From positions 3,796,313-3,860,312 of the forward strand of contig CAWFMP010000002.1 of assembly GCA_963816965.1 (NCBI GenBank): DNA of 64,000 bases, written 5' to 3'. Position 1 is the stretch's first letter. Every line of letters begins with the position of its first letter. Positions 5,928 through 64,000 of the stretch are shown in pieces. Made by a program: the position numbers and the translations under genes. The notes beneath the pieces are model-generated. The model was given only the letters and a program-made list of their open reading frames with translations, was not told the DNA's origin and did no database searches. This stretch comes from an uncultured delta proteobacterium. GTDB lineage: Bacteria; Myxococcota_A; Polyangia; Palsa-1104.

Positions 5928-6067
5928 ACCTGGCGCCCAATTATTGTAAAGTCAAATCAGTTGCTTACGGCGGGGTCTCGAAAGCCCTTGGGGAGTCTGG
6001 CCCCAGGTGCGTCGACCCCTGTGCAGTCGGACTGGGACGCGTGCGGCGGCAGTGCTAGGTTGCGCGC
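5928..6067. promoter_or_regulatory. Divergent promoter region between kinase-STAND gene and ANL-like gene
   Basis: 140-bp non-coding gap between divergently oriented starts; contains AT-richer stretch CCCAATTATTGTAAAGTCAAATCAG. Confidence 0.3.
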
Positions 6068-27280: not shown

Positions 27281-27434
27281 TTTCGCCCATGGTAATACGG
27301 GCGGTCAATCGAATTCCGCCGAGAATTCGCGCACTTTCACTCTATTTTGCGTTGGTGAAATCGATTACGAATGAAAAACGGAAAGCGGCGGACATCTGAT
27401 TACCAGGGATTACTCGCCGCCCGCCGGGGGCTGC
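27281..27434 (-). promoter_or_regulatory. Unusually AT-rich intergenic segment upstream of kinase gene (candidate promoter/UTR)
   Basis: Local GC drops well below the ~70% background; lies between small membrane-protein gene and kinase start. Confidence 0.3.
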
Positions 27435-27626: not shown

Positions 27627-27678
27627 CAGCGCCTCCTCCTTGTAAAGGTACGCACGTTTCCTTGCCTACGCAACGAGC

Positions 27679-29412: not shown

Positions 29413-29467
29413 GCGGCTCGTTCAGTGTACCCAAACTCGGCATGACATGAAGTAAGCTCGTCCTCCG

Positions 29468-32176: not shown

Positions 32177-32212
32177 GCGACAGTTGCAACGACCCATGAT
32201 ATCGTCGGCGCG

Positions 32213-32722
32213 ATGAGCGCTATCGGCCCGGCGCAGGCACTGCGCCTCCTCGCGGAGCTCGTGGAGCTCGACCGTCAGATTCGCACCAAACGACAGCCGC
32301 TCTCGCTGGGGCAGAAGCAGCGGCGCGCGCAGATCGCTCAGGATCTGCACCGCTTCGCGCTGGCGCGCCAGCGTGCCGGCTGGAGCGGCGGCGGCGATCT
32401 GCGCCGCGACCCGCGCGCCAACGTCAAGCTGCGCGTGCAGCTGGTCGGCGGGCCGCGCCCGCTCGAGCTGCAGTCGGATTCGCTCGCCGTCGGCGGTATG
32501 AGCCTGACCCTGACGTTCGCCCCGCGCGTGGGCGATCGCCTGCACCTGCGCCTGGTGCCGCAGCAGCCGGACGAACCCTTCGACGTCGAGGGCGAGGTGG
32601 TGTGGTTCAACGCCGCGCGGCAGCGCGCCGGCGTGCAGTTCTACGGCCTCGACGAGGCGCAGCGCCAGCTGCTCGAGCGCCTGATCTTCGCCGATCTGGT
32701 CGGTAGCGGCGGGGTGGGCTGA
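32213..32722 (+). CDS. PilZ-domain protein (c-di-GMP binding)
   Basis: QKQRRAQIAQDLHR / RRDPRANV (RxxxR-like) followed by DSLAVGGMSLT (DxSxGG). Confidence 0.6.
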   Translation: MSAIGPAQALRLLAELVELDRQIRTKRQPLSLGQKQRRAQIAQDLHRFALARQRAGWSGGGDLRRDPRANVKLRVQLVGGPRPLELQSDSLAVGGMSLTLTFAPRVGDRLHLRLVPQQPDEPFDVEGEVVWFNAARQRAGVQFYGLDEAQRQLLERLIFADLVGSGGVG

Positions 32723-46389: not shown

Positions 46390-47920
<1,531 letters not shown>

Positions 47921-48026
47921 GCGCGCTGTTGGTAGCCGAGCCCTAACCCGCCGTCAAGAACGGCAAATCCGGTTGATCGTCGGCGGCGAACTCATATAAT
48001 GGAGGACCGAGGACCCGCGCCCACCC

Positions 48027-51000
48027 ATGTCCACACAGAAGGACGGCACCATGGTGCCGCCACCGGACGCAATCGAACGTGACGACTCCGACGTGACTGA
48101 CGTCAAGGGTCTACCGTCGATCTCGGCCGCGGAGGACGACCAGGAGGACGTGGTCACCCACGTCAAGCCGGTCGACGGGGCCGAGGCGCAGGCCGAGCCG
48201 CCGACCCAGCGCCGCCTCGATCTGCCGCCCCGCCTGCCGGGCGTGCCGGCGTCGGTCGCCGAGCTGGAGCCGGAGCTGGAGCCGGGGCCCGAGCCCGAGC
48301 CCGAGCCCGAGCGCCGAGCCCGAGCCCGAGCCCGAAGAGGAGATCCAGACCGTCGATGACGCCGACGTGGAGACCGTCGAGGACGACGCGGTCCTGGAGG
48401 AGGAGCTGGCGGAGGAGCCGCCGGTCCTGCCGGGGGCGCTCGAGCTCGCGCTGGCCGACGCCCAGGGCCGGGGGGCCGAGGACGCCCACCTGCGCCTGCT
48501 GGCGCTATACGAGCGCGAGCTCGCGGCGCTGGCGCACGGCGAGCCGGAGAAGGCGCGCAGCGCCCTCTATCAGCACGAGATCGGCGAGCTGACCGAGTCC
48601 CGGGCTGGCGACGAGGGCGCCGCGGTCAAGGCCTACGCCAAGGCGCTGCAGTCGGACGCGACCCTCAAGCCCAACCTATGGGCGATCCGCCGCGTCTTTC
48701 AGCGGCGGGCGTTGTGGCCGAACCTGCAGAAGCTGCTCGACGCCGAGATCCGCTTCGCCAAGACGCCCGAGGAGAAGGCGGAGCTGTACGTCGAGAAGGG
48801 CGAGCTGCTCGAGGACCGCCTCAAGGATGCGGTCGGCGCGCTCGACTGCTTCAATCGCGCGGTGGAGGCGGCGCCGGCGTCGTTGCCGGCATGGATGGCG
48901 CTGGAGAAGATCCATGCGCGCGCGCGTGACCTCGGCAACCTGGCCCGCGTCTGGCGCGGCATGGCCGATGCCACCGCCGAGCCGGCGCGCAAGGTGGCGC
49001 TGCTGATCGATCTGGCGCGCTTGCAGGAGTCGATCGGCGGCGGCCCGACCGAGGCGCGGGCGATCCTGCAAGAGGCGCTGGCCGTGGGGGCCGACGGCAA
49101 CCGCGTGCTCGACGAGCTGGAGCGCTTCGCCGAGCGCAGCGGCGATCGGGAGGAGCTGCTGGCGGTGCTCGACGAGCGGGCGCGGCGGTTGACCGCGCAG
49201 CTGGGCGAGATGGCGATCGAGCAACGCTTGCACGCCAGCGAGCGGCTGGTGGCGATCCGCTGGCGACAGGCCGGGCTGGCGCGCGAGCGCGGCGACGGTG
49301 AGGGTGCGTGGAGCTACCTGCAGGCGGCGCTGGCCGCGGCGCCGGGCGAGCCGCTCATCGTGCGCGCCTTGTCGGAGCTGGCCGAGTCGCTCGGCCGCTG
49401 GGACGAGCTCAGCGATCTGCTCGCCGGGCGCGTCGAGACGGCGCCGGCGTCGCGCAAGATCGCGCTGCGGCTCGAGCGCGCCGAAGCGCTGCGGCGCGCC
49501 GGCAAGGCGTCCGAGGCGGACGCGGTGGAGAACGAAGTGGCCCGCGACGAGCCGGGGCACCTCGGCCTGGCCATCGCACGCGAGCGCGCGGCGCTTCAGG
49601 CGCGCGACTGGGAGAAGCTGGCCGCGCTGTACACGGCGGAGGCCGAGCTGGCGAACTCCGATGGCACGCCGACCGGCACGCCCGATCCCGCGTGGGCGGC
49701 GACGGCGCTGGTGCAGGCGGCGGCAGCGTATGATCACCTGGGGCGCGAGGCGGAGGCGCACAAGGCGCTCGAGGATGCGCGCAAGCTGGTGCCGCACTTC
49801 GCGCCCGCCGTCGATGCGCTGGAGCGCATGTACGCGCGCGCCGGCAAGCACGCCGAGTACGCGGCGCTCGTCGAGGCGGAGCTGACGGCGAATCCGTCGC
49901 GGGCGCGCGCCGAGCAGCTCCTGGTGACCCTGGCCGCGGAGCGCGAGGCGCTCGATGACCTGCCGGGCGCGGCGCAGGCGGCGCGGCGGCTGGTCGAGCT
50001 CCTGCCCGACGACGTGCGCGCGCGCGTGCGCCTCTACGAGCTCGATCGCGCGGCGCAGAAGCTGGCCGAGGCGTCGGACGATCTGGGCCAGCTGGCGAAG
50101 CTGTTGCCCGAGGATCGCCGCATCGACACGCTGCTCGAGCGCGCCGATCTGCTCGAGCACCGGCTGAACGATCCGCTCGGTGCCGCCGCCGCTTATCGCG
50201 AGGCGCTGGCGCTGCGGCCCGGCGATCCGCGCGCGACCGACGCGTTCGAGCGCCTGTCGCGGCGGCGCGCCAAAGAGTCGGGGCCGCACGACCAGCCGTC
50301 ACGGGAGGCGTGGGACGAGCTGGCCGCCGCCCTGCAGCGCGAGGCGCAGGCCTCGCTCGCCCCCGAGCGCATCGCCAACGCGCTGCTCAAGCTGGGCGAG
50401 ATCCACGAGCGCGAGCGCGGCAACTTCGTCGATGCGGCGCAGGCCTATCGCGATCTGCTGGAGCGGGTGCCGGGGCACGCGGCGGCGCTGCGCGGTCTGG
50501 GGCGCGCCTATGCGGCGCTCGGCGACGACGCCAAGCGCGCCGAGGCGCTCGCCGACGAGGTCGAGGCGCTCAAGGAGTCGGCCCGTGGCGAGGCGCTCTT
50601 GCGGCTCGGCGAGCTCTACGAGGACACGCTCGCCAAGCCCGATCGCGCCGACGAGGCCTATGGACGCGCGCTCGAGCTCGGCGCCGACCCGCACGCCGCG
50701 CTCGGCCGCCTGCGCACGGCGGTACGCGCGCGCGAGCCGCTGGCGCTGGCAGAGGCCATCGCGCGCTTGGAGCCGCTCGTGTTCGGCGATGGCGCCGGCG
50801 CCGCCGCGCGCGCCGTCCTCATCGAAGAGCGCGCCGATCTGGCGCACAAGGCCGGCGACGTCGACGGCGCGCTCGCCCGTACCGACGAGGCCATCGAGCT
50901 CGATCCGGCGGCGCGGCTGCCGTGGCTGGAGCGGGCGCGGCTGTCGGCGCAGGGCGGGGAGGTCGCCGCGCTCGGCGATGCGCTCGAGGCGCTGGCGCAG

Positions 51001-53238
51001 CGCTCGTCGGAGCCGGCGTTGCAGTCGGCGCTGCAGCGGCGCGCCGGCCTGTTGGCGCTGTCGTCAGGCTCGCGGGCGACGCGCACCGCCGAGGCGGCCG
51101 AGCGGCGCCTGCGTCAAGCGTTGGCGCTGACACCGTCGGATACGACGTCGCTGGTCGCGCTGTGCGCGGTGGTCGCCGACCCCGATGCGCTCGGTGCGCG
51201 GGCCAAGCTCGCCGAAGGCGCGGCGCAGCTCGAGTGGCACGTCGAGCACGGCGAGGCGCTGGAAGCGGCGGGGCGCCTCGGCGAATCGGCGCAAGCGGCC
51301 AGCCGCGCCCTCGAGCTCGACGCGCATCATCTCGGCGCGCTCGAGCTGGCACGGCGGCTGGCGCGCGCCGGTGCTGACGACCGCGCCTATGCGGTGGCGA
51401 CGGCGCGGCTGGCGGCCGAGGTGCTCGAGGGCGAACGCGCCGCGGGCTTCTATCGCGAAGCGGCCGAGACCTTCGAGCGCGCCGGGGCGCGGCGCGAAGC
51501 GGCCGGCGCCTGGCGGGCGGTGCTGGATCGCACGCCGCTCGACGGAGCCGCCGCCACCCGCGCGCGCGAGCTGCTGGCCGCGCTCTACGCTGAGGACCGC
51601 GATCCGGGGCCGCTGGTCGAGCTGTTCACGCACCGGCTCGATCACGTCCGCGGCGGCGACGATCGGGTCCGCCTCTACCTCGACCGCGCCACGCTCTTCT
51701 TCGACGGCGGCGATCGCGACAGCGCCGAGAGGGATCTGCGCTCGGCGCTCGACCTCGACCCCGATGAGCTCGAAGCGCTGCGGCGCCTCGCCGAGCTCGT
51801 GGGCGCCAAGCCGGACGGACGCGACGAAGCGATCGAGCTGTTCTGCCGCTTCCTCGAGGGCGAGGACGACCGGGAGCGCCGCCGCGCGGCGCTGCAGCGG
51901 CTCGCCGATCTCTATGAGCACGCGGGCCGGGTCGACGACGCGGTGGCGCGGCTGGAGGAGGCGGTCAAGCTGGCGGCGCGGCCGGGCGACGCGCGCCCCG
52001 AGCAGGAGAAGCTGGCGCAGCTCCTGGTGCGGCAGCGGCAGTGGCAGCACGCCGTCGACGCCCTGCGGCGCCTGAGCGAGCTCGTCGACCCGGGCCGGGA
52101 GCGGGCGGCGGTCGAGATCCGCATGGCCGCGATCTACCGGGAAGGCTTCTCCGATCCGCGCGCGGCGGTGGAGGCGCTCCTGCGGGCGCTGCGCAGCGAT
52201 CCACTGTCGATGGAGGCGCTGGCCAAGCTGATGCCGCTCGCCGAAGCGGGCCACGTGCTCACCATCGAGCTTGAGGAGAAATTGGAGCGCGCCATCGAGA
52301 GCGCCCGCGCCCAGGCGGTCTCGTCGCCGCTGGGCGAGCTGCCCTATCAGCAGCTGACGCGGCTGTGGGCCTGGCGCGGCGACGACGACTCGCGGCTCGT
52401 CTCGGCGCAGGCGGAGGCGCTGGCCGCCGGGCGGGCGCCGCCGGTGCGCGAATCGGCCGTGGAGCCGGCCAAGGAGCTGTCGGCGCAGTCGTGGGAGCGC
52501 ATCTGGCCCGAGACCGCGCGTTCGGTGGCGCTCGAGGTCTGGCGCGCCGCGGCCGAGGCCGCCGCGGAGCTGTACGGTCCGTCGCTGGAGTCGCTCGGCG
52601 TCGGCAAGCGCGAGCGCGTCAACGCCAAGGGGACGCCGCTGGCCTGGATCCCGATCGACAAGATCGCACGCAGCCTCTGTGGCTCGCACTTCGCCTACGA
52701 GCTGTACGCGTCGCCCAAGGCCGATCTGTGTGTGACCACGGGCAACGCCCTGGTGTGCGGCAGCGTGTTCACCGACCGGCTGTCACCGTCGCTGCGCTTC
52801 CGCGTCGCACGGCGGATTGCGCTGATGCGCGAGCGGCTCGGGCCGCTGGAGGCGATCGAGGACGACGAGCTGGCGCTGTTCTTCGCCGCCTGCGCACGCG
52901 TCGCCGAGCTGCCGACGCCGCCGGCGCTGGCGGCGCTGCCGCAGGCGCGCGTCGACGAGCGGGCCAAGACGCTCGGCAAGGCGCTCGCGCGCCGGGACCG
53001 AAAGGCGCTGCAGGCGATTGGCGGGCGCATGGCGACGCTGCCGCCGCCCGCCCAGTGGCGGCAAGCAGTGCTCGAGGGTGTGGCCCGGGCAGCGCTGGCG
53101 GTGGGTGGGGATCTGGTGGCTGCGTTCGGCGAGCTGTCGGTCACGATGTCCAAGGATCGACTGGCGCAGGTGCTCACGACGTTCGCCGTGTCGGACGATT
53201 TCCGCGTGCTTCGGCGCGACATGGGACTGAAGGGATGA
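48027..53238 (+). CDS. Giant TPR-repeat protein (~1,737 aa), single frame change inside (EP)n repeat near 48300
   Basis: Acidic N-terminus MSTQKDGTMVPPPDAIERDDSD… then ELEPELEPGPEPEPEPE; continues as PEPEPEEEIQTVDDADV… in track ORF 48367..53238 (1623 aa of TPR-like helical repeats). Confidence 0.7.
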
Positions 53239-56200
53239 GCGCTGTGGGAGGGAACGGCGGCGGCGGCAAGAGCGACGATGGCGAGCTCGACGACTGGGCG
53301 GCGGCCATCGACGAATGGGACGCGAACCTGGCGTTGCCGGCGCCGGGCGCCGCCAAGAAGGAGCCGGCAGCGGCTGCCGGAGACGAGGCCAAGGCGCGCG
53401 AGCGCTCGGCGACTCCCGCGGTAGGCGTGCCCGAGCTGCGCAAGCGCAAGGAGACCTCGGCGCCGATCGACGTGCCGGCGCCGCTCGAGGCCGCGCCCCT
53501 GCCCGGGGGGACGCTCGAAGAGGATCCGTTGATGCACCTCTTCGATGGCGAGATGGAGCTGCCCGAAGAGGCGGGGCAGGCGCTCGGCTCGCTGTTGGGC
53601 GACGCGATCAAGCAGCCGCCCGGGTCGCCGCACGCCGAGCCGCTCGAGGCCAGCCTCGATCTCGACGCCGAGCTGCCGCCGGATCAGGGCATGTTCGGCG
53701 ACGATTACGGCGGGTCGACGCGTGTCGCCGACGCCGACGAGTTCGATCGGCTGCTCGCCGACACGGCGTCGATCGCCGACGACGGCTCGGCACCGAGGCC
53801 GGCGCCGACAGCGCCGGCGGATGACGAGCCGTCGCTGTCGATCGACGTCGACGCCGACATGGTCAGCGACCCCGGCTTCGGCCAGGAGTCGACGCGCGTG
53901 GCGCCGGCGGCCGAGGTCGATCAGCTGCTCGCCGATGCCGACGACGTGGAGAAGGATTTGCCGCCCGCGCCGCCGCCGTCGGGGAGCTTCAAGGCGCCAA
54001 CGCTGCCCGAGCCGGGATCGAAGCTGCCATCGGGACGCTTCGGCGGGCCGAAGAAGCCGGCGCCGCCCGTCGAGCCTCAGGAGAGCCCGGCGCAGCTCGA
54101 CCTGGAGGTCGAGATGGAGCTCGGCGCCGCGGTCGAGCAGGCGGTGAGCGCGCCCCCGCCCGTCGACGAGGACTTCTACGACGACATCGTGGTCGAGGCC
54201 GCGCGCGATCAGCCGAGCGAGAGGCCCGCGCCGCCACGGCCGATTTTCGAGGCGCCGCCGCAGGCGCGCGAAGAGGACGACCACGATCTGTTCGAGGTCA
54301 CCGTCGATGCGTCGCCGGTGCCCGGGGTCTCGGGCAGCGACCCCGATCGCACGCCACTGCCGATTGCCGAGGGCACCGACGAGCCGCTCGGCGCCCAGCC
54401 GCTGCGCGTGATGCAGCTCGGCGAGTCACGTCCCGTCGTCGCCGCGCGCATTGCCCTGCCGATGGCCGCGGGCGCTGCGCCGCTGCCGACGCTGAGCGTG
54501 CCCGACGTTGGGCCGCCGCGCACGCTCGATCCGGCGTACCTGCGTGATCAGCTGGCGCTCTACGACACCGAGCGGTTGCTGTCGTCCGCGGACAAGCCGG
54601 AGCGCGTGGCGCAGCTGGCCTTCGCCGCCGGCCGCATCGCCGAGAAGCTCGCCGACGTCGGCGGCGCCATCGAGCGCTACGAGGCGGCGCTCGACGCCGA
54701 TCCCAAGCACGCGCACGCCCTGCGCGGGCTGCGCCGGCTCCACCTCGCCGACGGCAAGCGCGAGCCTGTGCTCGGCCTCCTCGATCGCGAGATCGCCGAC
54801 GCCTCGCCGGCGGAGCGGCGCGGGCTGCACGCCGTGCGCGCCGAGCTGGCGCTGGCGCTCGGCGACCGCGAGCTGGCGCACGCCTCCTACGACGCGATCG
54901 TCAAGGAGCAGGCCGACGATCTGGGCGCGCTCTCCGGGCTCGTCGACCTGGCGGCCGCGGGCAGCGACGAGGGGCGTGCCCAGCCCCTGCACGCGCTGTT
55001 CGAGGCGATCGGCTCCGCCGATGCGCCGATGCGCGCGGCGCTCCTGGTCGAGCATGCGCGGCTCGACGAGGCGGCCGGACGCGTGCGCGAGGCGGTGGCG
55101 CGTTATCGTGAGGCGCTCGGTGTCGATCCCACGTCGATGGCGGCGGCGTGGGGCCTTGTGCGCGTCGCGGTGCGCACGCCCGGGATCGCCGACGACATGG
55201 AGACCCACGCGCGCCTGGCCGAGCTTCTGCCCGCCGGGCCGCTGCGGCAGGCGCTCGAGCGGCGGCTGGGGATGCTGCGCGCGCGCGCCGGCGATGTGGC
55301 GGGTGCCCGACCGGCGCTGCAAGCGGCGGCCGCCGACGGTGACCGCGTGGCGCTCGCCGATCTGGCGCAGCTCGAGCGCGCCGACGGACGTCTCGAGGAG
55401 TCGGCGGCGGCGTTGGCGCAGGTGATCGAGGCCGAGCCCGATCCGGGGCGGCGCGCCGATCGTCTGATCGCGCTCGGCGAGCTGTCGGAGAAGCAGGGGC
55501 GCGTCGCGGAAGCCGCCGCCGCGTACGCGCGGGCGGCCGCGGAGTACGCCGACGATCCGCGCGCGGCGCGCGCGCTCGAGCGCACGCAGGCGGCGGGCGG
55601 CGACAAGGAGTCGGCGCTCACGCGCCATCTGCAGGCGGCCGAGCGCAGCCCGGCGCGCGCGCCGATGGAGCTGACCTACGCCGCGCGCCTGTTGCGCGAG
55701 CTCGGCCGCGCCGACGAGGCGCTGGCGCGGCTCGACATGGCGCTGACCGCGGCGCCGATGCTCGGCCCGGCGATCGATCTCGCCGTCGAGCTGCACCTGG
55801 CCGCCGGCCGCGCCGAGGAAGCGGCGGCGGTGCTCGGCCGCGCTGCCGACGCGGCCGATGAGCCGGGCCTGGCGCAGGCGTTCCGCATCCGCGCGGCGCG
55901 GATGTTGCTGCGCGCCAACCGCGCCGGCGATGCGCTGGCGATGGTGCGCCCGCTGCTCTCCGTGGCCGACGTGGCGCGCGCGGCGCGCTGGCTCGAGGAG
56001 CGTATCCTGCGCGTCGCCGAGGGGCAGGCCGATGCGCTGCGTGACAGCTTGCGCGCCGAGACCGACGCCGCCGAAGTGGTGGGCGACATGCGGCGCGCCG
56101 CCGCGCTCGCCTACGAGCGGGCGCTTCTGTCCTCCAGCGACGAGGAGGCCATCGACGCCTGGCGTCGCGTGCTCGCCATCGACCCCGGGCACGGCGCCGC

Positions 56201-59200
56201 AGTCGTCGAGATCGCGGCCCGCGCCGACGCCGAGCGCCGCGCCGCCGAGCTGCCGGCGATCCTCCAGGCGCAGCTGGCCGCCGCCGGCACGCGTCCGGAA
56301 GCCATCGCGGTCGCGCTGCAGCTCGGCGCGGTGCTGCTCGAGGACGCCCGCGATGGCGCGGGCGCCGCGCGCGTCTACGCCGATGCCGCGGCGCGCGCGC
56401 CCGGCTATGCCCCTGCGCGCGAGGGGCTCGATCGCGTGGCCCGCCTGAGCGACGATCCCGCCGCGCACCTCGGGGCGCTCGAGCGCGAGCGCGCCGATGC
56501 CGAGCTGCCCGAGCAGCGCTTCGCCATCGATCTCGTCCTCGGCGAGAAGCTGGAGGAGGGTGGCCATCCCGATCGGGCGGTCGAACGCTATCGCCGCGCG
56601 CTCGAGTCGCGCCCCAATCACCCGCTGGCGCGGCACGCGCTGGAGCGCGCGCTGCAGGCAGCCAGAGATCACGCCGCGCTCGCCGATCTCGCGCTCGCCG
56701 ATCTCAAGGATGCGCCCGATCCGCTGGCCAAGGTCGCCGCCTACGAGCGGCTCGCGTTTCTCGACGGAGAATTGCGCGGCGATCCCAACGCAGCGCTGCT
56801 CGGCTGGGAGTCGATCCTCGAGGTCGACCACGCACACCACGTCGCCATGCGCGTGCTCGAGAAGCACTATATCGGCGAGGAGCGCTGGCCCGAGCTGGTC
56901 GCGCTCTACGAGCAGATGGGCCTGGGCGCCGTCGACCCCGCCTTCGCGGTGGCCGTGCACCTCGATCGCGCGCGCCTGCGCCGCCGCCTCGCCGGCAGCG
57001 CGCAGCCGGAGGTAGCGGGCGAAACGAGCGTGTCCGAGGCGGAGCTGGCCGTCGCCATCGACAACGACTATCGGCTGGCGCTCTTCAAGGATCGGCGCTG
57101 CCGCCCCGCGCTGCGGCACGTCTACGCGCGGGCACGCAGCGGCCACGATCTGGCGCAGGAGGCCGACGCCGCCGGTGCGCTCGCCGACGCCACGCCCGAC
57201 GACGCCCGCACCGCCGCCGTCATGCTCACCCGCGCCGCCGAGGCGCTGGTCGAGCTCGACCGCGGCGACGACGCGCGCGCGCGCTACGAAGCGGCCATCG
57301 AGCGCCTGCCGTCGCACGTGCCGGCGCTGGTCGGCCTGACCGACTTCGCCCTGCAAAAGGGCGATTGGGCGCGCGCCTCGCACGCCGCCGAGCGCGCCGG
57401 CCACGCGCTGCGCGACAGCGCCGCCAAGGCGCGGCTCTTCTTGGTCGCCGGCGCGCTCGCGCAGGAGCGCCTCGAGGGGCCGGACGAGAAGATCGCCCGC
57501 GCGCAGTCCCTGTTCCGCCAGGCGCTCGCCGCCGATCCGCGCTCGGGCGAGACCTTCTCGCGCCTCGAGCGCTCGCTGCACGAGACGCACGACTTCGCCG
57601 CGCTCGCCGAGCTCTACCAGCGCCGCATCGAGGTGGAGACCGACAGCGGCAAGCTGATGGCGCTGCACCTCATGCTCGCGCGCATCGCCCGCGACGAGCT
57701 CAAGGATCGCGACCGGGCGCGCGCCGAGCTCAAGGCGGTCCTGGCGCAAGACCCGGGCCACCTCGAGGCGCTGGCCGCGCTCGCCGATCTGCAGTTCGAG
57801 GATCAGCAGTGGTCCGAGGCCGCCGAGACGCTCATCCGCCGCGCGCGCGCCGAGAAGTCGCGCACCGCGCTCAAGGACATCTTCTTCAAGCTCGGCCTCA
57901 TCTACTCGGAGCACCTGCCCGATCCCAAGCGCGCGGTGGCGTCGTTCACCCGCGTCCTGCAGGTCACGCCCGACGACATCGTCGCGCTCGGGCACCTGTC
58001 GAACCTGCACGTCAAGGAGTGGGAGTGGAAGGGCGCCCTGCAAGCGACGCTGCGCCTGGCCGGGCTCGAGCCCGAGCCGCACAAGCGCGTCGCGCACCTG
58101 CACCGGGTGGCCAAGATCTACGAGGAGGGCTTCAAGGACGCGCGCCACGCGCTCGCCGCCTTGCGCGACGCGATGGAGATCGATCCGCTCTACCTGCCGT
58201 CGATCGGTGAGCTGGCCAAGTTCTTCGATCGCCAGTCCGACGTGCAGTCGATGCGCGTGCACCTCGATCGCACCAGCGCGCGCGTGCGCCACCAGCTCGA
58301 CACCAACCCGCTCGACCCGAGCGCCCTACCACTCGCTCTTCAAGATCTACGGCTGGCGCCGCGCGCCCGATCGCGCCGCCTTCGCCGCCGGCACGCTCGA
58401 TTGGCTCGGCGCTGCCGACGCCGAAGAGAAGGCGATGCTGCACAAGCTCACCGGGCGCGACAACTACCCCGGCTCGTCGCTGGCCGACCCGACGCTCGAC
58501 GAGACGCTGTTCGACGCCCGCGTGCCCGCGGGCTTCCGCAACCTGTTCCGCCTGCTCGACGAGCCGCTGGCCAAGATGTTCCGCGCCGACGTCAAGCGCC
58601 TCGGCGTCGGCCGCCACGAGAAGCTGCCGCGCTCGGGCCACGCGCTGCGCGAGGTGGCCAACAAGGTCGCCGTCGATCTCGGCGTTCGCGACTTCGATCT
58701 CTACGTCACGGCCGCGCACCCGACCGCGCTGGTCGTCGAGCTGACCGATCCGCTCTCGGTCGTCATCGGCAACAAGGTCATCGAAGGCGCGCACGAGCTC
58801 GAGCTGCGCTTCCTCTTCGGCCGCTGCTTCAAGATGATTCAGAGCCACATGGCGCTGCCGATGCGCCTGACGCCCGAGGATCTGGGGCTTTTGGTCGGCG
58901 GCATCGTGCGGCAGTTCGTGCCCGACTTCGTGCCCGCCGGGTTCGACGAGGCGCAGATCGTGGCCGAAGCCGGTCGCATGGTGCGCATCATCCCGAAGAA
59001 GATGCACGGCGAGCTCTTGCCGTTCGCCCTCGAGTGCGCCTCGGAGTCGCTCGACCTGAAGCAGATCGGCCCGTCGCTGGTGCACACGGCCAATCGCGCG
59101 GGCCTCTTGTGCTGCGGCCTGCCCGGACCGTCGCTGACCGCGATCCGGCGCCTCGCCGACGACGCTCAGCTGCGGGCGCTGTTGCGCTTCACCGTCTCCG

Positions 59201-59247
59201 ACGAGCTCGCCGAGCTGCGAAGGCAGCTCGGCACCGCGCTCGGCTGA
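53235..59247 (+). CDS. Giant TPR-repeat protein (~2,000 aa) with acidic/Pro-rich disordered N-terminal region; one frame change near 58320
   Basis: ATG overlaps upstream stop (ATGA); in frame with track ORF 52365..59285 up to ~58320, then C-terminus continues in track ORF 58207..59247 (…AYHSLFKIYGWRRAPDRAAF…). Confidence 0.7.
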
Positions 59248-59379
59248 TCGCGGGCGCTGGGGTCTGCCGGCGGCTGGCAGCGTAGCCATGGCGGTCCCAC
59301 CTGCGGTCGATTGACCCCAGGCGCGCTAATGGTTTCAATCGGTTAATCCTGGTACGACCTTTGCTCACATTGCCCGCCC

Positions 59380-60510
59380 GTGCGGCGGCCCACCCTGTAT
59401 CTGACCCTATCGCTCCTCTGGTCGGCCCTCGGCTGCGGCCCCCGGACCGGCACCAGCCTGGACCCGATCGCGCCCCAGACCGCGGTTGTCGGCGTCGAGC
59501 TCGGCGTCATGCTGCGCGCCGCCACGGCCGCCCACGTCGACTTCGCGTTCCAGTCCGACCTCGATCTGAAGGAGCGCCGCCTGCTGCCGACGCTGACGCC
59601 CTACGCCAACGGCGAGGCGATGTTCCGCTGGACGCCGCTGGCCTCCGATCTCGGCGATCACACCTTCCGCTTCAGCGCCACCGTCGACGGCGTGCCCGCC
59701 TGGGAGCCGGTCGCCATCCGCGTCGTCGCCGGTGACGATCCGATCTCGTTCCGCTCGCCGGTGGGGGAGGGCACGACGCTCGATCTGGCGCGCGCCCCCT
59801 GCGCGGTCATCCCGCTGCTCGTCGACGACACCAGCGCCACCGAGGTCGAGCTCGCTCCCGGCGGCCCGCTGCCCGACGGCGCCACCCTCGATCGCGACGG
59901 TCCGCTGTCGGGGCACCTCAAGTTCTGTCCGTCGAAGGTGCTGGCGCAGGCGCAGACGATCTTCCCGTTCAGCATCGTCGCCAGCGACAGCGGCGGCGCG
60001 CGCACCGAGAAGCGCTACACGGTCGTGCTCGGCATCCTGGCGCCGCCGGTGGTTGCGCCGCCGCCGGCGCCGACGCCCGATCCGAACCCGAATCCCAATC
60101 CGCCGCCGACGCCGACCTGCGACAGCGCCGCGCCGACCATCCAGACCACGCCGCACGGCGACATCACCACCGTCGGCAATCCGCACATCTACGCCGAGAT
60201 CTCGGATCCGCACGGCATCTACAACGCCATCGTCTTCTGGTCGACGACGCCGCCCGACGATCCCGAGAACCCCGATCTGTTCGCCATGGACGCTGTCGAC
60301 ATGCAGCTTCTGTCCGGCAGCTCGCAGGACGGGCAGTGGGGCGGCACCATCCCGAGCCCGGTCATCGACGACGTGCCGGGGACGACCGCGACGATCTACT
60401 ACGTCATCGGCACCACCGACGACGACGACGCGGTCCCCGGCTGCCCGTACCACGCGACCTTCAGCCCGGCCAGCGGTGTCTACTCGTTCGACATCACGCG
60501 GGCGAACTGA
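59380..60510 (+). CDS. Hypothetical lipoprotein with Pro/Asn-rich linker
   Basis: MRRPTLYLTLSLLWSALGCG lipobox; PDPNPNPNPPPTPT linker; 376 aa. Confidence 0.6.
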   Translation: MRRPTLYLTLSLLWSALGCGPRTGTSLDPIAPQTAVVGVELGVMLRAATAAHVDFAFQSDLDLKERRLLPTLTPYANGEAMFRWTPLASDLGDHTFRFSATVDGVPAWEPVAIRVVAGDDPISFRSPVGEGTTLDLARAPCAVIPLLVDDTSATEVELAPGGPLPDGATLDRDGPLSGHLKFCPSKVLAQAQTIFPFSIVASDSGGARTEKRYTVVLGILAPPVVAPPPAPTPDPNPNPNPPPTPTCDSAAPTIQTTPHGDITTVGNPHIYAEISDPHGIYNAIVFWSTTPPDDPENPDLFAMDAVDMQLLSGSSQDGQWGGTIPSPVIDDVPGTTATIYYVIGTTDDDDAVPGCPYHATFSPASGVYSFDITRAN

Positions 60511-62457
60511 TGCGCCGGCTGGCTGCGATCGCCCTCGTCACTACCCTGGCCACGAGCGGCTGCTCGTCGGCGCAGCTCCCTGGGCTCGATGACGGGCTCG
60601 CCACGCCGCGCGTCGACGAGCTGCACCCGGCGCTGATCCTGCCCTCGTCGCGCATCGATCTGGTGGGCGCCGGCTTCGCCGATCCCGCGCGCGCCACCAC
60701 CCGCCTCGCCCTGCGCGGCCGCTTCACTCCGACCGGCGGCGCCGCACAGACGGTCGAGCTCACGCTGGCGGCGACCCAGGTCGACGACGCACACGCCTAC
60801 GCGGTTGCCGCGGGCGCCGCATGGGCGCTGCCGGCGACGAGCGGCCACTTCGACGGCAGCGCCGTCGCGCAGTCGCTCTCGGCGGTCGACGGCAGCCTGC
60901 GCGAGTCGCCGGCGCAGCCGGTCAGCTTCGACGTCGCCGTCCACCCTGCAGCCGCACCTCTCGTCGCTGACCGCCGGCGCCGCTGGGACGCTGCACGTCA
61001 ACGATCCGGTCGTGCTCAGCGGCGACAGCTTCCTCCTCGGCAACGGCGAGGGCGAGACCCGCGTGGTGGTCAACGGCGTCGAGCTGGTGGCGCGACCGCT
61101 GCCCGAGGCGCCGTGGGATCGCACGCGCGTCGCCTTCCCCTTCGCGCCGGCGATCGCCGGCATCCAGCCCGGCAGCTTCAGCGGCACCGTCGCCGTGCGC
61201 AACGTCCTCGCCTCGGGCGCGGCCGAGGCGGCCGGCACGCTGCCGCTGGCCGTCACCATCGTCAAGCCGGAGATCACCGCCGTGGCGCCCACCGCCGCCA
61301 GCCTCGGCCAGTACGTCGACATCTCGGGCGGCGGCTTCGTCGGTGAAGCGGCCGACGAAGTGACGCTCCTGCACCTGGTCGGGAACTTCACGCCCGACGG
61401 CGGCGGCACCGCCGCGCCCGTCGACCTCACGCTCGTGCCCCACTTCAGCGCCGGTACCAGGCTGCGCTACGTGCTCGACGAGGCCGACGCGCTGGGCCGC
61501 CTCATCGATCTGCGCCGCGTCTCGGGTCGCTTCGTCGGTCAAGTCACGCCCATCGCCCGCAAGGGCGCCGACGAGGTCGTGGGCGCCGCCGCCGACGCCA
61601 CCCTGGCCGTCGCCCCGGTCAAGCAGGTCATCTACGTGCGCTTTTTACCCTCGTACCTCGACTCGCTCCGCCTCTACGGCCTCGCCAACGCCGACGCGCT
61701 CGTACGCCAGCGCATCTTCGCCGTCGCTGCGCGCGACTACGTCGGCATCAACGTCGAGTTCCGCGACACGCCGCCCGCGGACTTCGCGCTCTATTCGCAG
61801 GTCGACGTCGAAGGGCCCGATCCCAACGCGCTCGGTCTGCTCGGCTACGACAACACGCCGGGCAAGGACGTCGGCAACCAGCGCCTGTTCGATCGCATCG
61901 GCGGCGTCAACGCCACCACGCAGTCCGACGGCTTTCCCGGCTACGGCGGCGTCTTCGCCGAGAACTTCCTCGGCTTCTCCGCGCACCCCTCGTCGCGCGT
62001 GGCGCGTCTGGAGACCGATCCCACGCACTTCGACGCCATCTTCGACGCCGTGCGTCCCGACACCGGCACTCCGGTCAGCAGCGCCGAGGTCCGCGCCGGC
62101 ATCCCCGCGCTCGATGACGGGGGCGCGTGCCTCGGCGCGCGGAACCGCGCCATGCAGGTCGGCTGCGCCGTCTTCGTCCTCGGCAACCTCGTCGGCAGCA
62201 CGCTCACTCACGAAGCCGGCCACAGCCTGGGCCTCGCCGATCCCACCGGCGAAGCGTTCCACGATCCGGGCGACGGCATCGATCGTCTCATGGACACCGG
62301 TGGCAACCGTCCCTTCGAGGAGCGCGCCGAGCTGCTCGGCCAGGGCCCCGCGGTCTTCTGCTCCGACGAGTACGTCTACCTGCGGACGATCCTGCCGTCA
62401 CTGCTCCCCGGCGATGCCGCCGCCGGCGATTCGATCGCGCGCCCCGACTGCAACTGA
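60510..62457 (+). CDS. Lipoprotein with C-terminal zinc-metalloprotease-like HExxH motif; one frame change near 60940
   Basis: MRRLAAIALVTTLATSGCSS lipobox in one frame (~145 aa), remainder in track ORF 60805..62457 containing THEAGHSLGL. Confidence 0.6.
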
Positions 62458-62472
62458 AGTAGAGTCTGCACC

Positions 62473-62856
62473 GTGAAGCTCTATGGTGCGCTCGACGTGG
62501 CGTTCGCCGCGCTCTACGCCTGGTTCGGCTTTCTGTTCACCCCTGGACGCTCGACCCCGTTCAACGTGGCGCTGGCGCTGGTCTGCGCGCTGCTCGCCGC
62601 CGGCGGCGCCGGCCTCATCGCCGGCGCCCGCTGGGGCCGCGCGCTCGCCATCGTCGCCTGCGCGGCGCTGCTCGTGTTCGCCGCCGTCGTCGTCCTGCTG
62701 CTCGTCGCCTCGAGCGCCTACCTGCGCGGCATCTACGGCCCGCTCGGCCAGGGCATGGCGGTGATGACGCTGCTCGTCGCCGCGCTGGTGATCGAGGGCT
62801 TCGCGCTCTTGCCGCTGTTCCAGCTCCGCTTCCTCCTCGGGCAGCGACGTGCGTAA
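62473..62856 (+). CDS. Small polytopic membrane protein
   Basis: Track ORF; four hydrophobic segments. Confidence 0.5.
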   Translation: MKLYGALDVAFAALYAWFGFLFTPGRSTPFNVALALVCALLAAGGAGLIAGARWGRALAIVACAALLVFAAVVVLLLVASSAYLRGIYGPLGQGMAVMTLLVAALVIEGFALLPLFQLRFLLGQRRA

Positions 62857-64000
62857 CGGGCTCGCCGCCTTCGCCGCGCTCGCCGGCATGGTGTGGATCG
62901 CGGTCTTCGCGGTCTACCGCACGCCCTCCTGGACGCCGCTGCCGCCGGCGCAGCGCGCGGCGATGATCGCGCGCGTCCGCGGCGGCGAGCGGCCGGCCTG
63001 GCCCGAGCGCGCCGTCGCCGGCGCCACCTTCGTGCGGGCGTTCGCCGATGGCGCGGCCCTGAGCGGCCCGCCGACGCCGGCCTCCCGCGTCAAGGTGGAC
63101 GTCGTCGTCGCGCGCGCTCCCATCTTCGCTGGCTACATGCCGCTGTTCGCGCTTTCGCTCGTCGCCGGCATGGACGGCATCGGCGTCGATGTCGGCGCTC
63201 GCGAGGCGTTCCTCCTCCCCGACGATCTCCTGCGCGCCGACGCGCTGGCCGGCGATACGCCGCTGTCGGCCATGGACCTCGAGCTCGGCGCCCGCCGCGA
63301 CGTCATCGATCATCTGCTCGCGCAAAAGCTCGGCCTGGACGACAGCGCCTTTGCCCGTGCGCCGAAGAGGTACTTCCGCTTCCGCACGGACTCATTCATC
63401 GAATCGGCCGATCACGCGACGGTGCTGCCGATCGTCCGCGGCAACACGCCCGGCCCGCGGCTGACCAGGCAGGCGCTGCGCGACGGCGCCATCGCCGGCG
63501 GCCGCTACCTTCTGCGCCACCTGTACGAAGACGGCCGCTTTGGCTACGAGTACACGCCGGCCACCGACACCGACGAGGCCTACGGCCTCGACTATTCGCT
63601 GCCGCGCCACGCCGGCGCCACCTACTTTCTGGCCCAGCTCTACGGCGCCACCGGCGACGTCACCTTCCGGCAGGGCGCACGCCGCGCGCTCGACTTTCTG
63701 GCGCAGCGCCAACCCGACGCCTGCGGCAACCCGACGCGCAGCTGCGTCGCCAACCGCGATCTGCGGGTCGCCGATCTGGGCGCCACCGCCATGGCGCTGC
63801 TCGCCGTCGGCGAGTTCGAGCGCGCCACCGGCGACCGGGGCCAGATGCCGTGGGCGCGCCGCCTGGCCGCGTTCCTCCTGTTCATGCAGAAGGACAATGG
63901 CGACTTCTGCCATCTGTTCGATCCGATCTCCGACAGCCGCGACGAGAAGACCAAGCTGCTCTACTTCTCCGGCGAGGCGGCCTTCGCGCTCGCCAAGCTG
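62849..64000 (+). CDS. Hypothetical membrane-anchored protein, partial (continues beyond window)
   Basis: Own translation from GTG overlapping previous stop: VRNGLAAFAALAGMVWIAVFAVY… open to window end, strong GC3 bias; not in ORF track (no ATG, no stop). Confidence 0.5.
   Translation, partial: MRNGLAAFAALAGMVWIAVFAVYRTPSWTPLPPAQRAAMIARVRGGERPAWPERAVAGATFVRAFADGAALSGPPTPASRVKVDVVVARAPIFAGYMPLFALSLVAGMDGIGVDVGAREAFLLPDDLLRADALAGDTPLSAMDLELGARRDVIDHLLAQKLGLDDSAFARAPKRYFRFRTDSFIESADHATVLPIVRGNTPGPRLTRQALRDGAIAGGRYLLRHLYEDGRFGYEYTPATDTDEAYGLDYSLPRHAGATYFLAQLYGATGDVTFRQGARRALDFLAQRQPDACGNPTRSCVANRDLRVADLGATAMALLAVGEFERATGDRGQMPWARRLAAFLLFMQKDNGDFCHLFDPISDSRDEKTKLLYFSGEAAFALAKL

Follow-up and report, generated by a model that had tools for sequence, protein, structure and literature searches.

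Two coupled giant TPR proteins as a candidate heteromeric docking scaffold in a Polyangia myxobacterium

We describe two adjacent paralogous genes encoding giant TPR proteins, and on balance we lean towards the reading that their products form a heteromeric cytoplasmic docking scaffold, possibly tied to Ser/Thr-kinase signalling. Judged by comparison of sequences, the region is two separate genes, co-transcribed and translationally coupled, and the encoded proteins are ancient paralogues, representing two old lineages inherited as a pair in six Polyangia lineages. Each protein combines an acidic Pro-rich disordered N-terminal tail, a TPR-type solenoid of more than 1200 residues, and a compact alpha/beta C-terminal domain (~260-340 residues), the last of which defines a large and widespread family without a database description.

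Results

Coding frames and assembly quality

The source is a soil myxobacterium of the class Polyangia, and all positions refer to the window, i.e., the whole 64-kb stretch of DNA that was analysed. GC3 frame analysis and ORF lists revealed + strand coding across 48027-59247, with the coding frame switching from 2 to 0 near 48300, from 0 to 2 at 53235, and from 2 to 0 near 58320; once the frames were corrected, GC3 was at least 0.9 throughout. For comparison, we used ENA contig_12655, which comes from another public assembly of this organism and is 99.4% identical. Across 43225-64000 the two differed by 92 mismatches, with many of the substitutions sitting at GATC, and by 19 gap openings in 20.8 kb, which bears out the high indel rate suspected in the initial annotation. 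All features described there were recovered at their coordinates or close to them, and those of the gene pair are as follows.

47973..48000, + strand: predicted sigma-70-like promoter (TTGATC, 16-nt spacer, TATAAT), directly upstream of gene 1
48027..53238, + strand: gene 1, giant TPR protein, ~1736 aa without the spurious G at 48313
48261..48342, + strand: ELEPELEPGP(EP)n acidic repeat within the disordered N-terminus of gene 1, containing the artefactual frameshift
48313, + strand: spurious inserted G in the context CCGAGC[G]CC, leaving gene 1 as two ORFs (110 and 1623 aa)
48445..52266, + strand: TPR-like helical solenoid of gene 1, ~aa 140-1390 (approximate boundaries), with TPR matches at aa 785-1316
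52267..53235, + strand: C-terminal domain of gene 1, non-TPR and family-defining, ending ...FAVSDDFRVLRRDMGLKG before the stop
53235..53238, + strand: ATGA stop/start overlap (gene 1 TGA 53236-53238, gene 2 ATG 53235-53237), reading GGATGAGC
53235..59247, + strand: gene 2, giant TPR protein, 2003 aa without the spurious G at 58323
53235..54554, + strand: N-terminal region of gene 2, aa 1 to ~440, disordered, acidic, Pro/Ala-rich, and of low complexity (net charge -57)
54555..58220, + strand: TPR-like helical solenoid of gene 2, ~aa 441-1662 (approximate boundaries), with TPR matches at aa 460-1604
58221..59244, + strand: C-terminal domain of gene 2, aa 1663-2003, alpha/beta, with helices and a three-stranded sheet
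58323, + strand: spurious inserted G in the context CCGAGC[G]CC, moving gene 2 to another frame

The frameshifts at 48313 and 58323 are assembly errors, and the earlier view of them as sequencing artefacts holds, both being absent from the second assembly. There, the G of 58323 is missing and gene 2 is an intact 2003-aa ORF, while a 7-base difference at 48307-48313 leaves gene 1 one EP unit shorter with its frame unbroken. The ENA assembly, free of both window frameshifts, carries another of its own.

The predicted promoter matches 10 of 12 consensus positions, a consensus match only, and is the sole promoter-like site within 47500-59500 (mean of 0.2 in shuffled sequences). Gene 1 could alternatively start at the ATG at 48051, as in the ENA call; this codon is preceded, at a distance of 7 nt, by the Shine-Dalgarno sequence AGAAGGA.

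One protein or two, intact or decaying

The initial annotation had recognized two translationally coupled giant TPR genes, for which the ATGA overlap at 53235-53238 provides the expected signature, and had also raised a single ~3,750-aa protein. Its two ORFs would be split by a sequencing indel at 53235 or joined by programmed frameshifting. Indel errors do exist in the window, two of them within these genes, and the ORFs, which lie in different frames, share 4 nt. Against a single product, the independent ENA assembly has zero differences across 53029-53468, the junction included, and two ORFs are retained in five other lineages (L002, L003, L004, L062, and L063) besides the window locus (L001), the six together including finished genomes of Sandaracinus amylolyticus and Sorangium (CP011125, CP150364). 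Junctions across these lineages are of four types, namely ATGA overlaps, GTGA overlaps, a TAG followed immediately by ATG, and a 15-nt spacer: the tight ones read TCATGAGC in L002, GGTGAGC in L004, CCGATGAGC in L062, and the in-frame TAGATG in L003, while one lineage carries the spacer with its own ribosome-binding site, GGAGGAG, and then GTG. Further, gene 1 stops exactly at the point where, throughout the family, the C-terminal domain ends, gene-2 orthologues (1938-2283 aa) cover 99-100% of the 2003-aa query from the first residues on, and no X XXY YYZ slippery heptamer was found by eye before the stop codon. We thus rejected one ~3,750-aa product and give the idea scarcely any credence. Just as hard to credit is that both genes are decaying and the frameshifts are genuine mutations, as the window sequence as given, frameshifted in both genes, might suggest: every frameshift is confined to one of the two assemblies, both G insertions share a heptamer context typical of systematic basecalling or polishing error, the high GC3 runs all along the corrected frames, and the corrected proteins match intact orthologues end to end.

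Architecture and paralogy

Profile searches identified TPRs far above chance in both proteins, in agreement with the TPR content originally proposed for these ~11 kb, with matches in gene 1 to TPR_8 (1.8e-10) and TPR_14 (8e-10), among others, and in gene 2 to TPR_19 (E=4.8e-26) plus nine other TPR models. The acidic N-terminus with an (EP)n repeat noted earlier for gene 1 was recovered at 48261-48342, and residues 1-135 have a net charge of -35 and 18% Pro. For gene 2, the acidic, Pro-rich disordered region was likewise present, but at ~440 aa it is longer than the ~350 aa first estimated. This region contains conserved short motifs (ELDDWAxAIDEWD, DPLMHLFD, TRVAxxxEVxxLL, and EDFYDDI) that are kept in orthologues, with an EDFYDDI-type motif still present at ~30-37% identity, and gene 2's own N-terminal motif is common to close and moderately distant orthologues. 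Neither protein has a detectable signal peptide or transmembrane segment, with no 19-mer above a KD hydropathy average of 1.51; both giants thus appear cytoplasmic and scaffold-type, which supports the character first ascribed to them.

The gene 1 and gene 2 proteins share 25% identity over ~450 aa (BLASTP, E=1e-14), and the same C-terminal domain aligns in both. In a NJ tree of this domain, four gene-1 orthologues cluster together, separate from the gene-2 clade. Orthologues of gene 1 (1591-1909 aa) were found in L002, L003, L004, L062, and L063, and for gene 2 a 2003-aa protein (P0001) is ~100% identical over 100% coverage.

The C-terminal domain family

A hmmsearch with profile A1, of which the gene 1 sequence is itself a member, matched ORF residues 1391-1712 of gene 1 at 2e-88, and gene-1 orthologues outside the profile still score 2.8e-25 to 4.5e-61. 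The family comprises at least 1743 protein clusters (50% identity) with E<=1e-30, and every member sampled stems from a Myxococcota-type or related MAG or genome. All 347 proteins examined carry the domain at their very C-terminal end (median 1 residue beyond it, maximum 87). Searches of Pfam (even at E<=10) and NCBIfam yielded no match to the domain, nor did a PDB sequence search with its core. The family includes a size class of 900-1080 aa as well as proteins of 3295 to >3659 aa that terminate in the same domain. Some related subfamilies are single genes without a partner (L005 and most loci of the A1-profile search), so the domain does not need pairing to work. In two members, P0316 (935 aa) and P0114 (1774 aa), the domain occurs together with Pkinase and TPR.

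AlphaFold2 modelled the gene 2 domain with confidence (pLDDT 90.8, pTM 0.88; trimmed core, pLDDT 96.5, pTM 0.92), and the model weakly resembles gluzincin metalloproteases. In Foldseek searches of the PDB with the core, M48, M56, or minigluzincin peptidases made up 18 of the best 50 matches, each zincin-like match being statistically insignificant (best E=0.63, TM <=0.34 on query length). In the model, a long helix comes after the three-stranded sheet, an arrangement that Foldseek matched time and again to the catalytic cores of M48 peptidases (BepA/YfgC, ZMPSTE24, HtpX), M56 BlaR1, and minigluzincins (selecase, jannalysin). Unlike those peptidases, the domain lacks HExxH and a third zinc ligand and has no detectable sequence similarity to them: none of the 347 sequences has HExxH on the equivalent helix, where the motif is E-[LV]-R-F-x-x-[GA]-[RK]-x-L, and we found no conserved His/Cys/Asp cluster, the conserved residues being Arg, Ser, Phe, and Gly (in gene 2, with Leu, G1838, F1852, R1856, R1947, L1975, F1978, S1981, and R1988).

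Genomic neighbourhood

Downstream of the pair, the window contains four more co-directional genes.

59380..60510, + strand: lipoprotein, 376 aa, with a weak Ig-like He_PIG match
60510..62457, + strand: lipoprotein with HEAGHSLGLAD, putative metzincin-type metalloprotease (648 aa in the ENA assembly)
62473..62856, + strand: small hydrophobic protein, 127 aa, with about four hydrophobic segments by eye
62849..64000, continuing past the window end, + strand: 584-aa protein with a hydrophobic N-terminus (membrane anchor by eye) and weak alpha/alpha-toroid-like matches

The two lipoproteins, one a putative metalloprotease, had been correctly called from the start: their lipoboxes are LGC and SGC, respectively, and the second carries HEAGHSLGLAD, has no Pfam match, and is interrupted in the window by an extra T at 60940. 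Beside the pair in L062 stand a 702-aa protein similar to the first lipoprotein (33% identity, E=2e-38) and a 622-aa protein similar to the second (47% identity, E=8e-146); the 376-aa lipoprotein gene was not found beside the pair in L003, L002, L004, or L063. Also conserved downstream are the 127-aa protein (60% identity in L003, 36% in L062) and, in L003 and L062, the 584-aa protein, there followed by two PEGA-domain Ser/Thr kinases. This PEGA-kinase synteny is kept in L001, L003, and L062, the last with only ~36% gene-2 identity. The pairs of Sandaracinus, Sorangium, and L063 do not share the flanking genes of the window, and the kinase/lipoprotein neighbourhood is therefore clade-specific.

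Discussion

The nearest known architecture is that of GltI (= AgmK = MXAN_4863), the TPR scaffold that serves the Agl-Glt gliding and focal-adhesion machinery in the cytoplasm of Myxococcus xanthus. A role as a multivalent docking platform has been proposed for it, with six FHA-binding sites predicted (PMC11761067). Like the pair, GltI comes from this phylum, is cytoplasmic and very large, and consists of an extended TPR solenoid and, after it, a helical C-terminal domain of considerable size; its overall size is approached by the largest proteins bearing the pair's C-terminal domain. Another likeness is to SgmX of M. xanthus, a cytoplasmic TPR adaptor whose ~1060 aa fall within the family's 900-1080-aa class. 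SgmX activates type IV pili, has 14 TPRs, binds MglA-GTP and FrzS, and recruits partners through separate TPR blocks, TPR12-14 being the MglA-binding domain (PMC9811614). It is set apart by its description, with TPRs up to the C-terminus and no separate non-TPR C-terminal domain (PMC9811614).

The analogy to AgmK/GltI drawn in the initial annotation stands for general architecture and fails for orthology. That the pair is the Polyangia counterpart of GltI, acting in gliding motility, draws on this architecture and on the family's C-terminal domain closing proteins of 3295 to >3659 aa, but GltI is one polypeptide of 3822-4132 aa (orthologues 3822-4104 aa) instead of two of 1.7k and 2.0k aa, and it belongs to a gltD-J cluster, adjoining gltJ and near gltG and gltH; a 2011 survey listed orthologues only for Myxococcus, Stigmatella, and Anaeromyxobacter. 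The ORFs scanned in the 64-kb window include neither an FHA/TonB or GltJ-like gene nor any other glt gene, the flanks in the five other lineages are likewise without glt genes, and no gltJ follows the giant family members examined. Judged by size and gene context, we rejected GltI orthology, and a gliding role of this kind seems very doubtful. Still more improbable is that the pair works in the manner of BepA (M48 peptidase + TPR), as active metalloproteases guided by their TPRs. BepA, which likewise combines a gluzincin-type core with TPRs, prevails with ZMPSTE24, BlaR1, and minigluzincins in the otherwise insignificant Foldseek list, and one homologue is named 'predicted Zn-dependent protease' by JGI; yet across the 347 sequences the equivalent helix has neither HExxH nor another conserved His/Glu/Asp cluster, no Pfam peptidase matches at E<=10, and the structural matches all have E >=0.6. 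Moreover, the order is reversed (peptidase first in BepA, TPR first here), and BepA is periplasmic, whereas these two proteins are apparently cytoplasmic. A broader proposal, which would extend and not exclude the docking scaffold, assigns the pair to a larger module spanning the envelope, as its cytoplasmic part, together with the Ig-like and HExxH lipoproteins, the 127-aa membrane protein, the 584-aa anchored protein, and the two PEGA Ser/Thr kinases. Gene order and orthology are conserved between L001 and L062 despite the divergence of gene 2, L003 has the same order save for the two lipoproteins, and intergenic gaps are short or overlapping. Against this, the pairs of Sandaracinus, Sorangium, and L063 have no such cluster around them, the first lipoprotein gene follows gene 2 only after a gap of 133 nt, and L003 does without the lipoproteins; we rate such a module as unlikely, if worth entertaining.

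For the docking scaffold that we favour, the stop/start overlap would lead to the two proteins being made in roughly equal amounts, and they may assemble heteromerically, most simply via their paralogous C-terminal domains, as paralogy and coupling alone suggest. The TPR superhelices and motif-bearing acidic tails would recruit partner proteins, while the C-terminal domain could serve as a non-catalytic binding module, its fold perhaps descended from a gluzincin (M48-like) protease minus the zinc site. Ser/Thr kinases with C-terminal TPR regions are common in myxobacteria, and P0316 and P0114 are comparable to them; the two window proteins have no kinase domain, and an acidic tail instead. In these kinase-bearing family members, the N-terminal kinase domain stands where the acidic tail is here. 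Ser/Thr kinases are also very numerous in myxobacterial genomes, so the proximity of the pair to kinase genes could be chance. Because P0316 and P0114 unite Pkinase, TPR, and the C-terminal domain in single proteins, the domain family appears tied to Ser/Thr phosphorylation signalling. With the conserved co-directional cluster of this clade also placing the pair beside two PEGA-domain Ser/Thr kinases, membrane proteins, and lipoproteins, the partners of the scaffold would most likely include Ser/Thr protein kinases.

Gene pair and coding frames

Third-position GC (GC3) places coding sequence on the + strand throughout 48027-59247, in a window whose overall G+C is ~72%, with three frame changes. 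The change at 53235 is a true gene boundary, where the upstream gene's stop codon (TGA) and the downstream gene's start codon (ATG) overlap within GGATGAGC; the remaining two are each caused by one extra G, at 48313 and 58323. With both extra Gs deleted, the two genes read as follows.

48027-53238 (+), gene 1, giant TPR protein, 1736 aa after correction
53235-59247 (+), gene 2, giant TPR protein, 2003 aa after correction

Both proteins belong to the TPR clan by several significant profile HMM matches (Pfam TPR_8 1.8e-10, TPR_14 8.3e-10, TPR_6 3.9e-7, and TPR_2 8.3e-7 in gene 1; TPR_19 4.8e-26, TPR_17 6.8e-9, TPR_8 3.1e-8, and others in gene 2). The gene 1 product has a 135-residue N-terminal tail with a net charge of -35 that includes an ELEP/(EP)n repeat, while that of gene 2 has an acidic, Pro/Ala-rich tail of ~440 residues with a net charge of -57. 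No membrane-spanning hydrophobic segment or signal peptide was found in either protein. The initial annotation had described exactly these features, i.e., two giant TPR genes with overlapping stop and start codons, an acidic N-terminus with an (EP)n repeat in the first, and an acidic, Pro-rich N-terminal region in the second (put at ~350 aa), and its proposed TPR profile search returned many significant Pfam matches in both proteins; given the frames, the overlap, the TPR matches, and the tails, its description was accurate and the sequence observation is confirmed.

The sole sigma-70-like promoter match within 47500-59500, by consensus, lies directly upstream of gene 1 (47973-48000), a placement that agrees with bicistronic transcription. 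Two start codons are possible for gene 1, at 48027 and 48051; the second has the better Shine-Dalgarno spacing and is the one chosen in the gene call of a second assembly at ENA. Searches of the whole window (1-64000) gave neither tRNA genes nor Rfam families at the gathering threshold.

Frameshifts and the two assemblies

That second assembly, of apparently the same organism (ERZ25039538, contig_12655), matches window 43225-64000 at 99.44% identity, with 92 mismatches and 19 gap openings over 20.8 kb. It lacks the extra G at 58323, and at the (EP)n repeat it has 7 bases fewer, which leaves the frame intact with one repeat unit fewer; an extra T of its own, matching window position 51735, splits its gene 1 into 1236 + 479 aa. 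This metagenome contig is 1.99 Mb long, and the intact protein of 2003 aa called on it, P0001, essentially equals corrected gene 2. Every frameshift is confined to one of the two assemblies; the frameshifts are assembly errors and the genes are not pseudogenes, which bears out the earlier suspicion of artefacts near 48300 and 58320. The extra Gs at 48313 and 58323 share the identical context CCGAGC[G]CC, which suggests a sequence-specific basecalling or polishing artefact, and many substitutions fall at GATC (window C, contig T) in what looks like methylation-related long-read basecalling error rather than strain variation.

Two neighbouring stretches also differ between the assemblies. The aromatic/histidine ammonia-lyase gene at 46518-47800 (-) holds ~55 differences in 1.3 kb, a density far above that of the neighbouring 10 kb and with many transversions and indels, and the window sequence breaks up its ORF (353 aa vs 510 aa in the ENA call); the excess could come from a low-coverage or mis-polished stretch, or from a strain mix. 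Single-base insertions at window 60940 and 62471, relative to the ENA contig, break the gene of a 648-aa HExxH lipoprotein (window ORF 550 aa) and shift the end of the region.

Two genes rather than one

The initial annotation had also raised the possibility of a single ~3,750-aa protein and proposed a synteny check. The pair was recovered as two ORFs in five other lineages.

Table. Gene pairs in other lineages (locus; source; gene 1 + gene 2 lengths; junction)
L002; Sandaracinus amylolyticus CP011125; 1635 + 2210 aa; TCATGAGC
L004; Sorangium sp. So ce1389 CP150364; 1591 + 1946 aa; GTGA overlap
L003; MAG; 1681 + 1993 aa; TAG, with ATG immediately after
L062; JGI contig; 1903 + 2283 aa; CCGATGAGC
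L063; GCA_964460115; 1909 + 2090 aa; 15-nt spacer with GGAGGAG, then GTG

With the window, six lineages therefore keep two ORFs, and the two assemblies show zero differences within 53029-53468. Four junction types with two ORFs always kept exclude a fusion as well as any conserved recoding signal, and the fusion hypothesis is refuted. Programmed -1 frameshifting at the junction was likewise set aside, as inspection by eye showed no slippery heptamer there and the lineages differ in junction type. Gene-2 orthologues span 99-100% of the 2003-aa query from its first residues, and the closer ones have an ELDDWAxAIDEWD N-terminal motif in common.

A C-terminal domain family

By BLASTP, the two proteins align over their last ~450 residues (25% identity, E=1e-14), of which the last ~340 are non-TPR and conserved across all homologues examined. 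Both genes end in the feature that defines the family, an alpha/beta domain of ~260-340 aa at the extreme C-terminus, with the motifs E-x-R-F-x-x-[GA]-[RK]-x-L, [DN]-R-A-G-L, and F-[AS]-[VI]-S-[ED]-x(4)-L-R, and a domain-end consensus of F-A-V-S-[DE]-x(4)-L-R-x-x-L-G. Measured on 347 sequences whose domain is near-complete, the median distance from the domain end to the protein end is 1 residue. A profile of the region (A1) scored gene 1 at 2e-88 and gene 2 at 1.6e-120, both sequences being inside the profile, and gene-1 orthologues not in it at 2.8e-25 to 4.5e-61. Out of 1.84 billion cluster representatives, the same profile retrieved 1743 proteins at E<=1e-30, i.e., a family of at least 1743 clusters at 50% identity. 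Taxon labels, where given, were Polyangia, Polyangiaceae, Kofleriaceae, Sandaracinus, Sorangium, Anaeromyxobacter, Bradymonadales, and generic "Myxococcales/Myxococcota".

Existing resources returned no entry for the domain: there was no Pfam match even at E<=10, no NCBIfam match, and no PDB sequence match to its core with the A1 profile or a second profile (A4), the PDB matches of both being designed or consensus TPRs at profile positions ~1-75 only. Looking for a specific family in NCBIfam and Pfam returned generic TPR matches alone, below curated cut-offs.

In a crude neighbour-joining tree of the domain, the four gene-1 orthologues grouped together, apart from a large clade with all gene-2 orthologues, which places the duplication before the split of Sorangium, Sandaracinus, and the window lineage. 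Judged by sequence, gene 1 and gene 2 are ancient paralogues kept as a coupled pair.

Proteins ending in the domain fall into size classes of ~500 aa (no TPRs), 900-1080, 1600-1850, 1950-2300, and 3300 to >3659 aa. P0316 (935 aa) and P0114 (1774 aa) join a Ser/Thr kinase to TPRs and the C-terminal domain, with the kinase in the place of the acidic tail. P0153-P0162 (~498-519 aa; Polyangiaceae and metagenomes) carry the domain alone behind a ~150-aa N-terminal extension, with neither TPRs nor any Pfam match, and would be convenient material for structural or biochemical work. At the other extreme, loci L009-L014 and L022 (Polyangiaceae and Bradymonadales MAGs), L006, L007, L008, and L016 encode members of 3295 to >3659 aa with the same domain, several of which extend past the 10-kb flank; the gene that comes next codes for an FHA-domain sigma-54 activator in L010 and for a tetrapyrrole-methylase-family protein in L007 and L022, and no gltJ-like gene follows these members.

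Structure of the C-terminal domain

AlphaFold2 modelled the domain with high confidence, both as 345 residues (pLDDT 90.8, pTM 0.88) and as a 253-residue core from 26 aligned sequences (pLDDT 96.5, pTM 0.92). The predicted fold runs from helices through a three-stranded sheet to a long helix bearing the best-conserved motif, and then to a helical bundle. Foldseek gave no significant PDB match for either model; the list for the 345-aa model was mostly helical-repeat noise, while 18 of the top 50 (insignificant) matches to the trimmed core were gluzincin-type metallopeptidases (BlaR1, ZMPSTE24, BepA, selecase, jannalysin), the best local fit covering 70 columns at 2.1 A. That a single small superfamily is so enriched among insignificant matches suggests a real likeness of the sheet-plus-helix core, though it falls short of proof. 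An active M48/gluzincin metallopeptidase of BepA type was rejected: none of the 347 domain sequences has HExxH on the aligned helix (consensus E-[LV]-R-F-x-x-[GA]-[RK]-x-L), and three sporadic HExxH motifs lie elsewhere. The best-conserved residues family-wide (F1852, R1947, L1975, S1981, G1838, R1988, F1978, and R1856 in gene-2 numbering) form no catalytic-looking cluster, and no conserved His/Glu/Asp cluster was found in the domain. Since the domain lacks both a zinc motif and such a cluster, we interpret it as a module for binding or assembly without enzymatic activity, and possibly as a dead zincin.

Genomic neighbourhood

The pair is followed by a cluster on the same strand.

(+), Ig-like lipoprotein
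(+), lipoprotein with HEAGHSLGLAD
(+), 127-aa hydrophobic protein
(+), 584-aa protein, hydrophobic at its N-terminus, weak alpha/alpha-toroid matches
(+), two PEGA-domain Ser/Thr kinases, just past the window end

The two lipoproteins predicted after the pair, one a putative metalloprotease, are thus in place, the second having the HEAGHSLGLAD motif. The cluster spans window 59380-64000 plus 16145-25009 of L001 (the ENA contig locus), and its counterparts lie at 14907-22852 of L062 and 15982-22097 of L003; none of its non-kinase proteins matched a Pfam family. L062 repeats the whole order, including the divergent upstream histidine/aromatic ammonia-lyase gene, with gene 2 only ~36% identical, and L003 repeats it without both lipoproteins. 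Sandaracinus, Sorangium, and L063 lack the cluster beside their pair, so the core module is the pair and the wider cluster a clade-specific association.

Elsewhere in the window we observed:

2166-5951 (-), 1261-aa Pkinase + AAA_16 (STAND-type) protein
25358-27304 (-), further PEGA-domain Ser/Thr kinase
27646-29238 (+), VanW/PG_binding_4 protein
29456-32176, unannotated 906-aa ORF
32177-32722 (+), PilZ-domain protein, immediately after that ORF

Comparison with GltI and SgmX

The initial annotation had compared the pair with GltI (AgmK, MXAN_4863), the cytoplasmic TPR scaffold of the Myxococcus xanthus Agl-Glt gliding machinery. [quoted passage not shown] 2011). In Myxococcus, Stigmatella, and Anaeromyxobacter, orthologues of 4074-4104 aa are encoded beside gltJ within glt clusters, and in the G1 glt cluster the gene is adjacent to gltJ (a zinc-finger protein of ~600-670 aa) and near gltG (FHA/TonB) and gltH.

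The general architecture holds: in both systems a TPR solenoid in the cytoplasm precedes a C-terminal domain that is mainly helical. Size and neighbourhood do not: GltI is one polypeptide of ~3800-4100 aa, whereas here 1736 + 2003 aa are encoded by two ORFs, and GltI lies within a glt cluster, whereas the window pair has no glt neighbours. A Pfam scan of the window ORFs examined gave no FHA/TonB_C or other glt-type gene, and no glt genes lie beside the pair in L002, L003, L004, L062, or L063. Gene 1 and gene 2 are accordingly not GltI orthologues by size and neighbourhood, and the analogy, drawn from architecture, appears to go no further than that. Giant family members (P0071, P0078, L010, and L022) were rejected as GltI-type loci, having no gltJ or gltG among their neighbours, which are radical SAM, TP_methylase, or FHA-sigma54 activator genes.

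No named M. xanthus protein appeared among the family match lists, a search with the last 620 aa of the 3424-aa relative P0065 matched only unnamed or "TPR repeat protein" entries, and a genome scan with the pattern T[AS][DS]RAGL[LVA][LM]C matched MAGs only, with no Myxococcaceae. SgmX was set aside as a candidate for the 900-1080-aa subfamily, judged by its description as TPRs throughout, with 14 TPRs, a C-terminal TPR12-14 block that binds MglA, and polar localisation via FrzS (PMC9811614).

Proposed function

We hold with high confidence that these are coupled genes for paralogous cytoplasmic proteins with a tail-solenoid-domain layout, a conserved terminal domain without catalytic signatures, and kinase-fused relatives. 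What they do can be proposed only tentatively. Stop/start coupling would give near-equimolar synthesis of both proteins, which may assemble into a heteromeric scaffold whose TPR grooves and conserved acidic-tail motifs recruit partners; the invariant-Thr motif TRVAxxxEVxxLL in the acidic tail would be a candidate phosphorylation site, and the scaffold might be linked to Ser/Thr-kinase signalling, possibly at the envelope. Considerably more doubtful is a joint reading that we think improbable, namely that an ancient dead gluzincin-like peptide-binding module caps thousands of myxobacterial TPR giants including GltI/AgmK, and that the heterodimer is the platform of an undescribed envelope-spanning, Ser/Thr-kinase-controlled machine with the downstream lipoproteins, membrane proteins, and PEGA kinases, i.e., a second Glt-like system in Polyangia.

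Significance

Among the non-enzymatic proteins of myxobacteria, giant TPR proteins rank with the largest. Among those considered here, GltI, as a gliding focal-adhesion scaffold, is the only one with an experimentally supported role. The window also illustrates how long-read indel errors can mimic pseudogenes or prompt false fusion calls.

On sequence grounds, the pair belongs to a large, uncharacterised giant-TPR family of myxobacteria and related lineages, with sizes from ~500 to >3600 aa and a defining C-terminal domain absent from Pfam, NCBIfam, and the PDB; one branch of this family is the conserved, translationally coupled paralogue pair. What is modestly new is this ancient pair and the undescribed domain with its possible dead-zincin fold. 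The domain definition, the conserved residues for mutation, and the kinase-fused variants offer handles for experiment, and they raise a testable question, namely whether the unexplained C-terminal domain of GltI is a member of the same family. If the weak zincin-like likeness is true, the domain would represent another protease fold recycled as a binding module.
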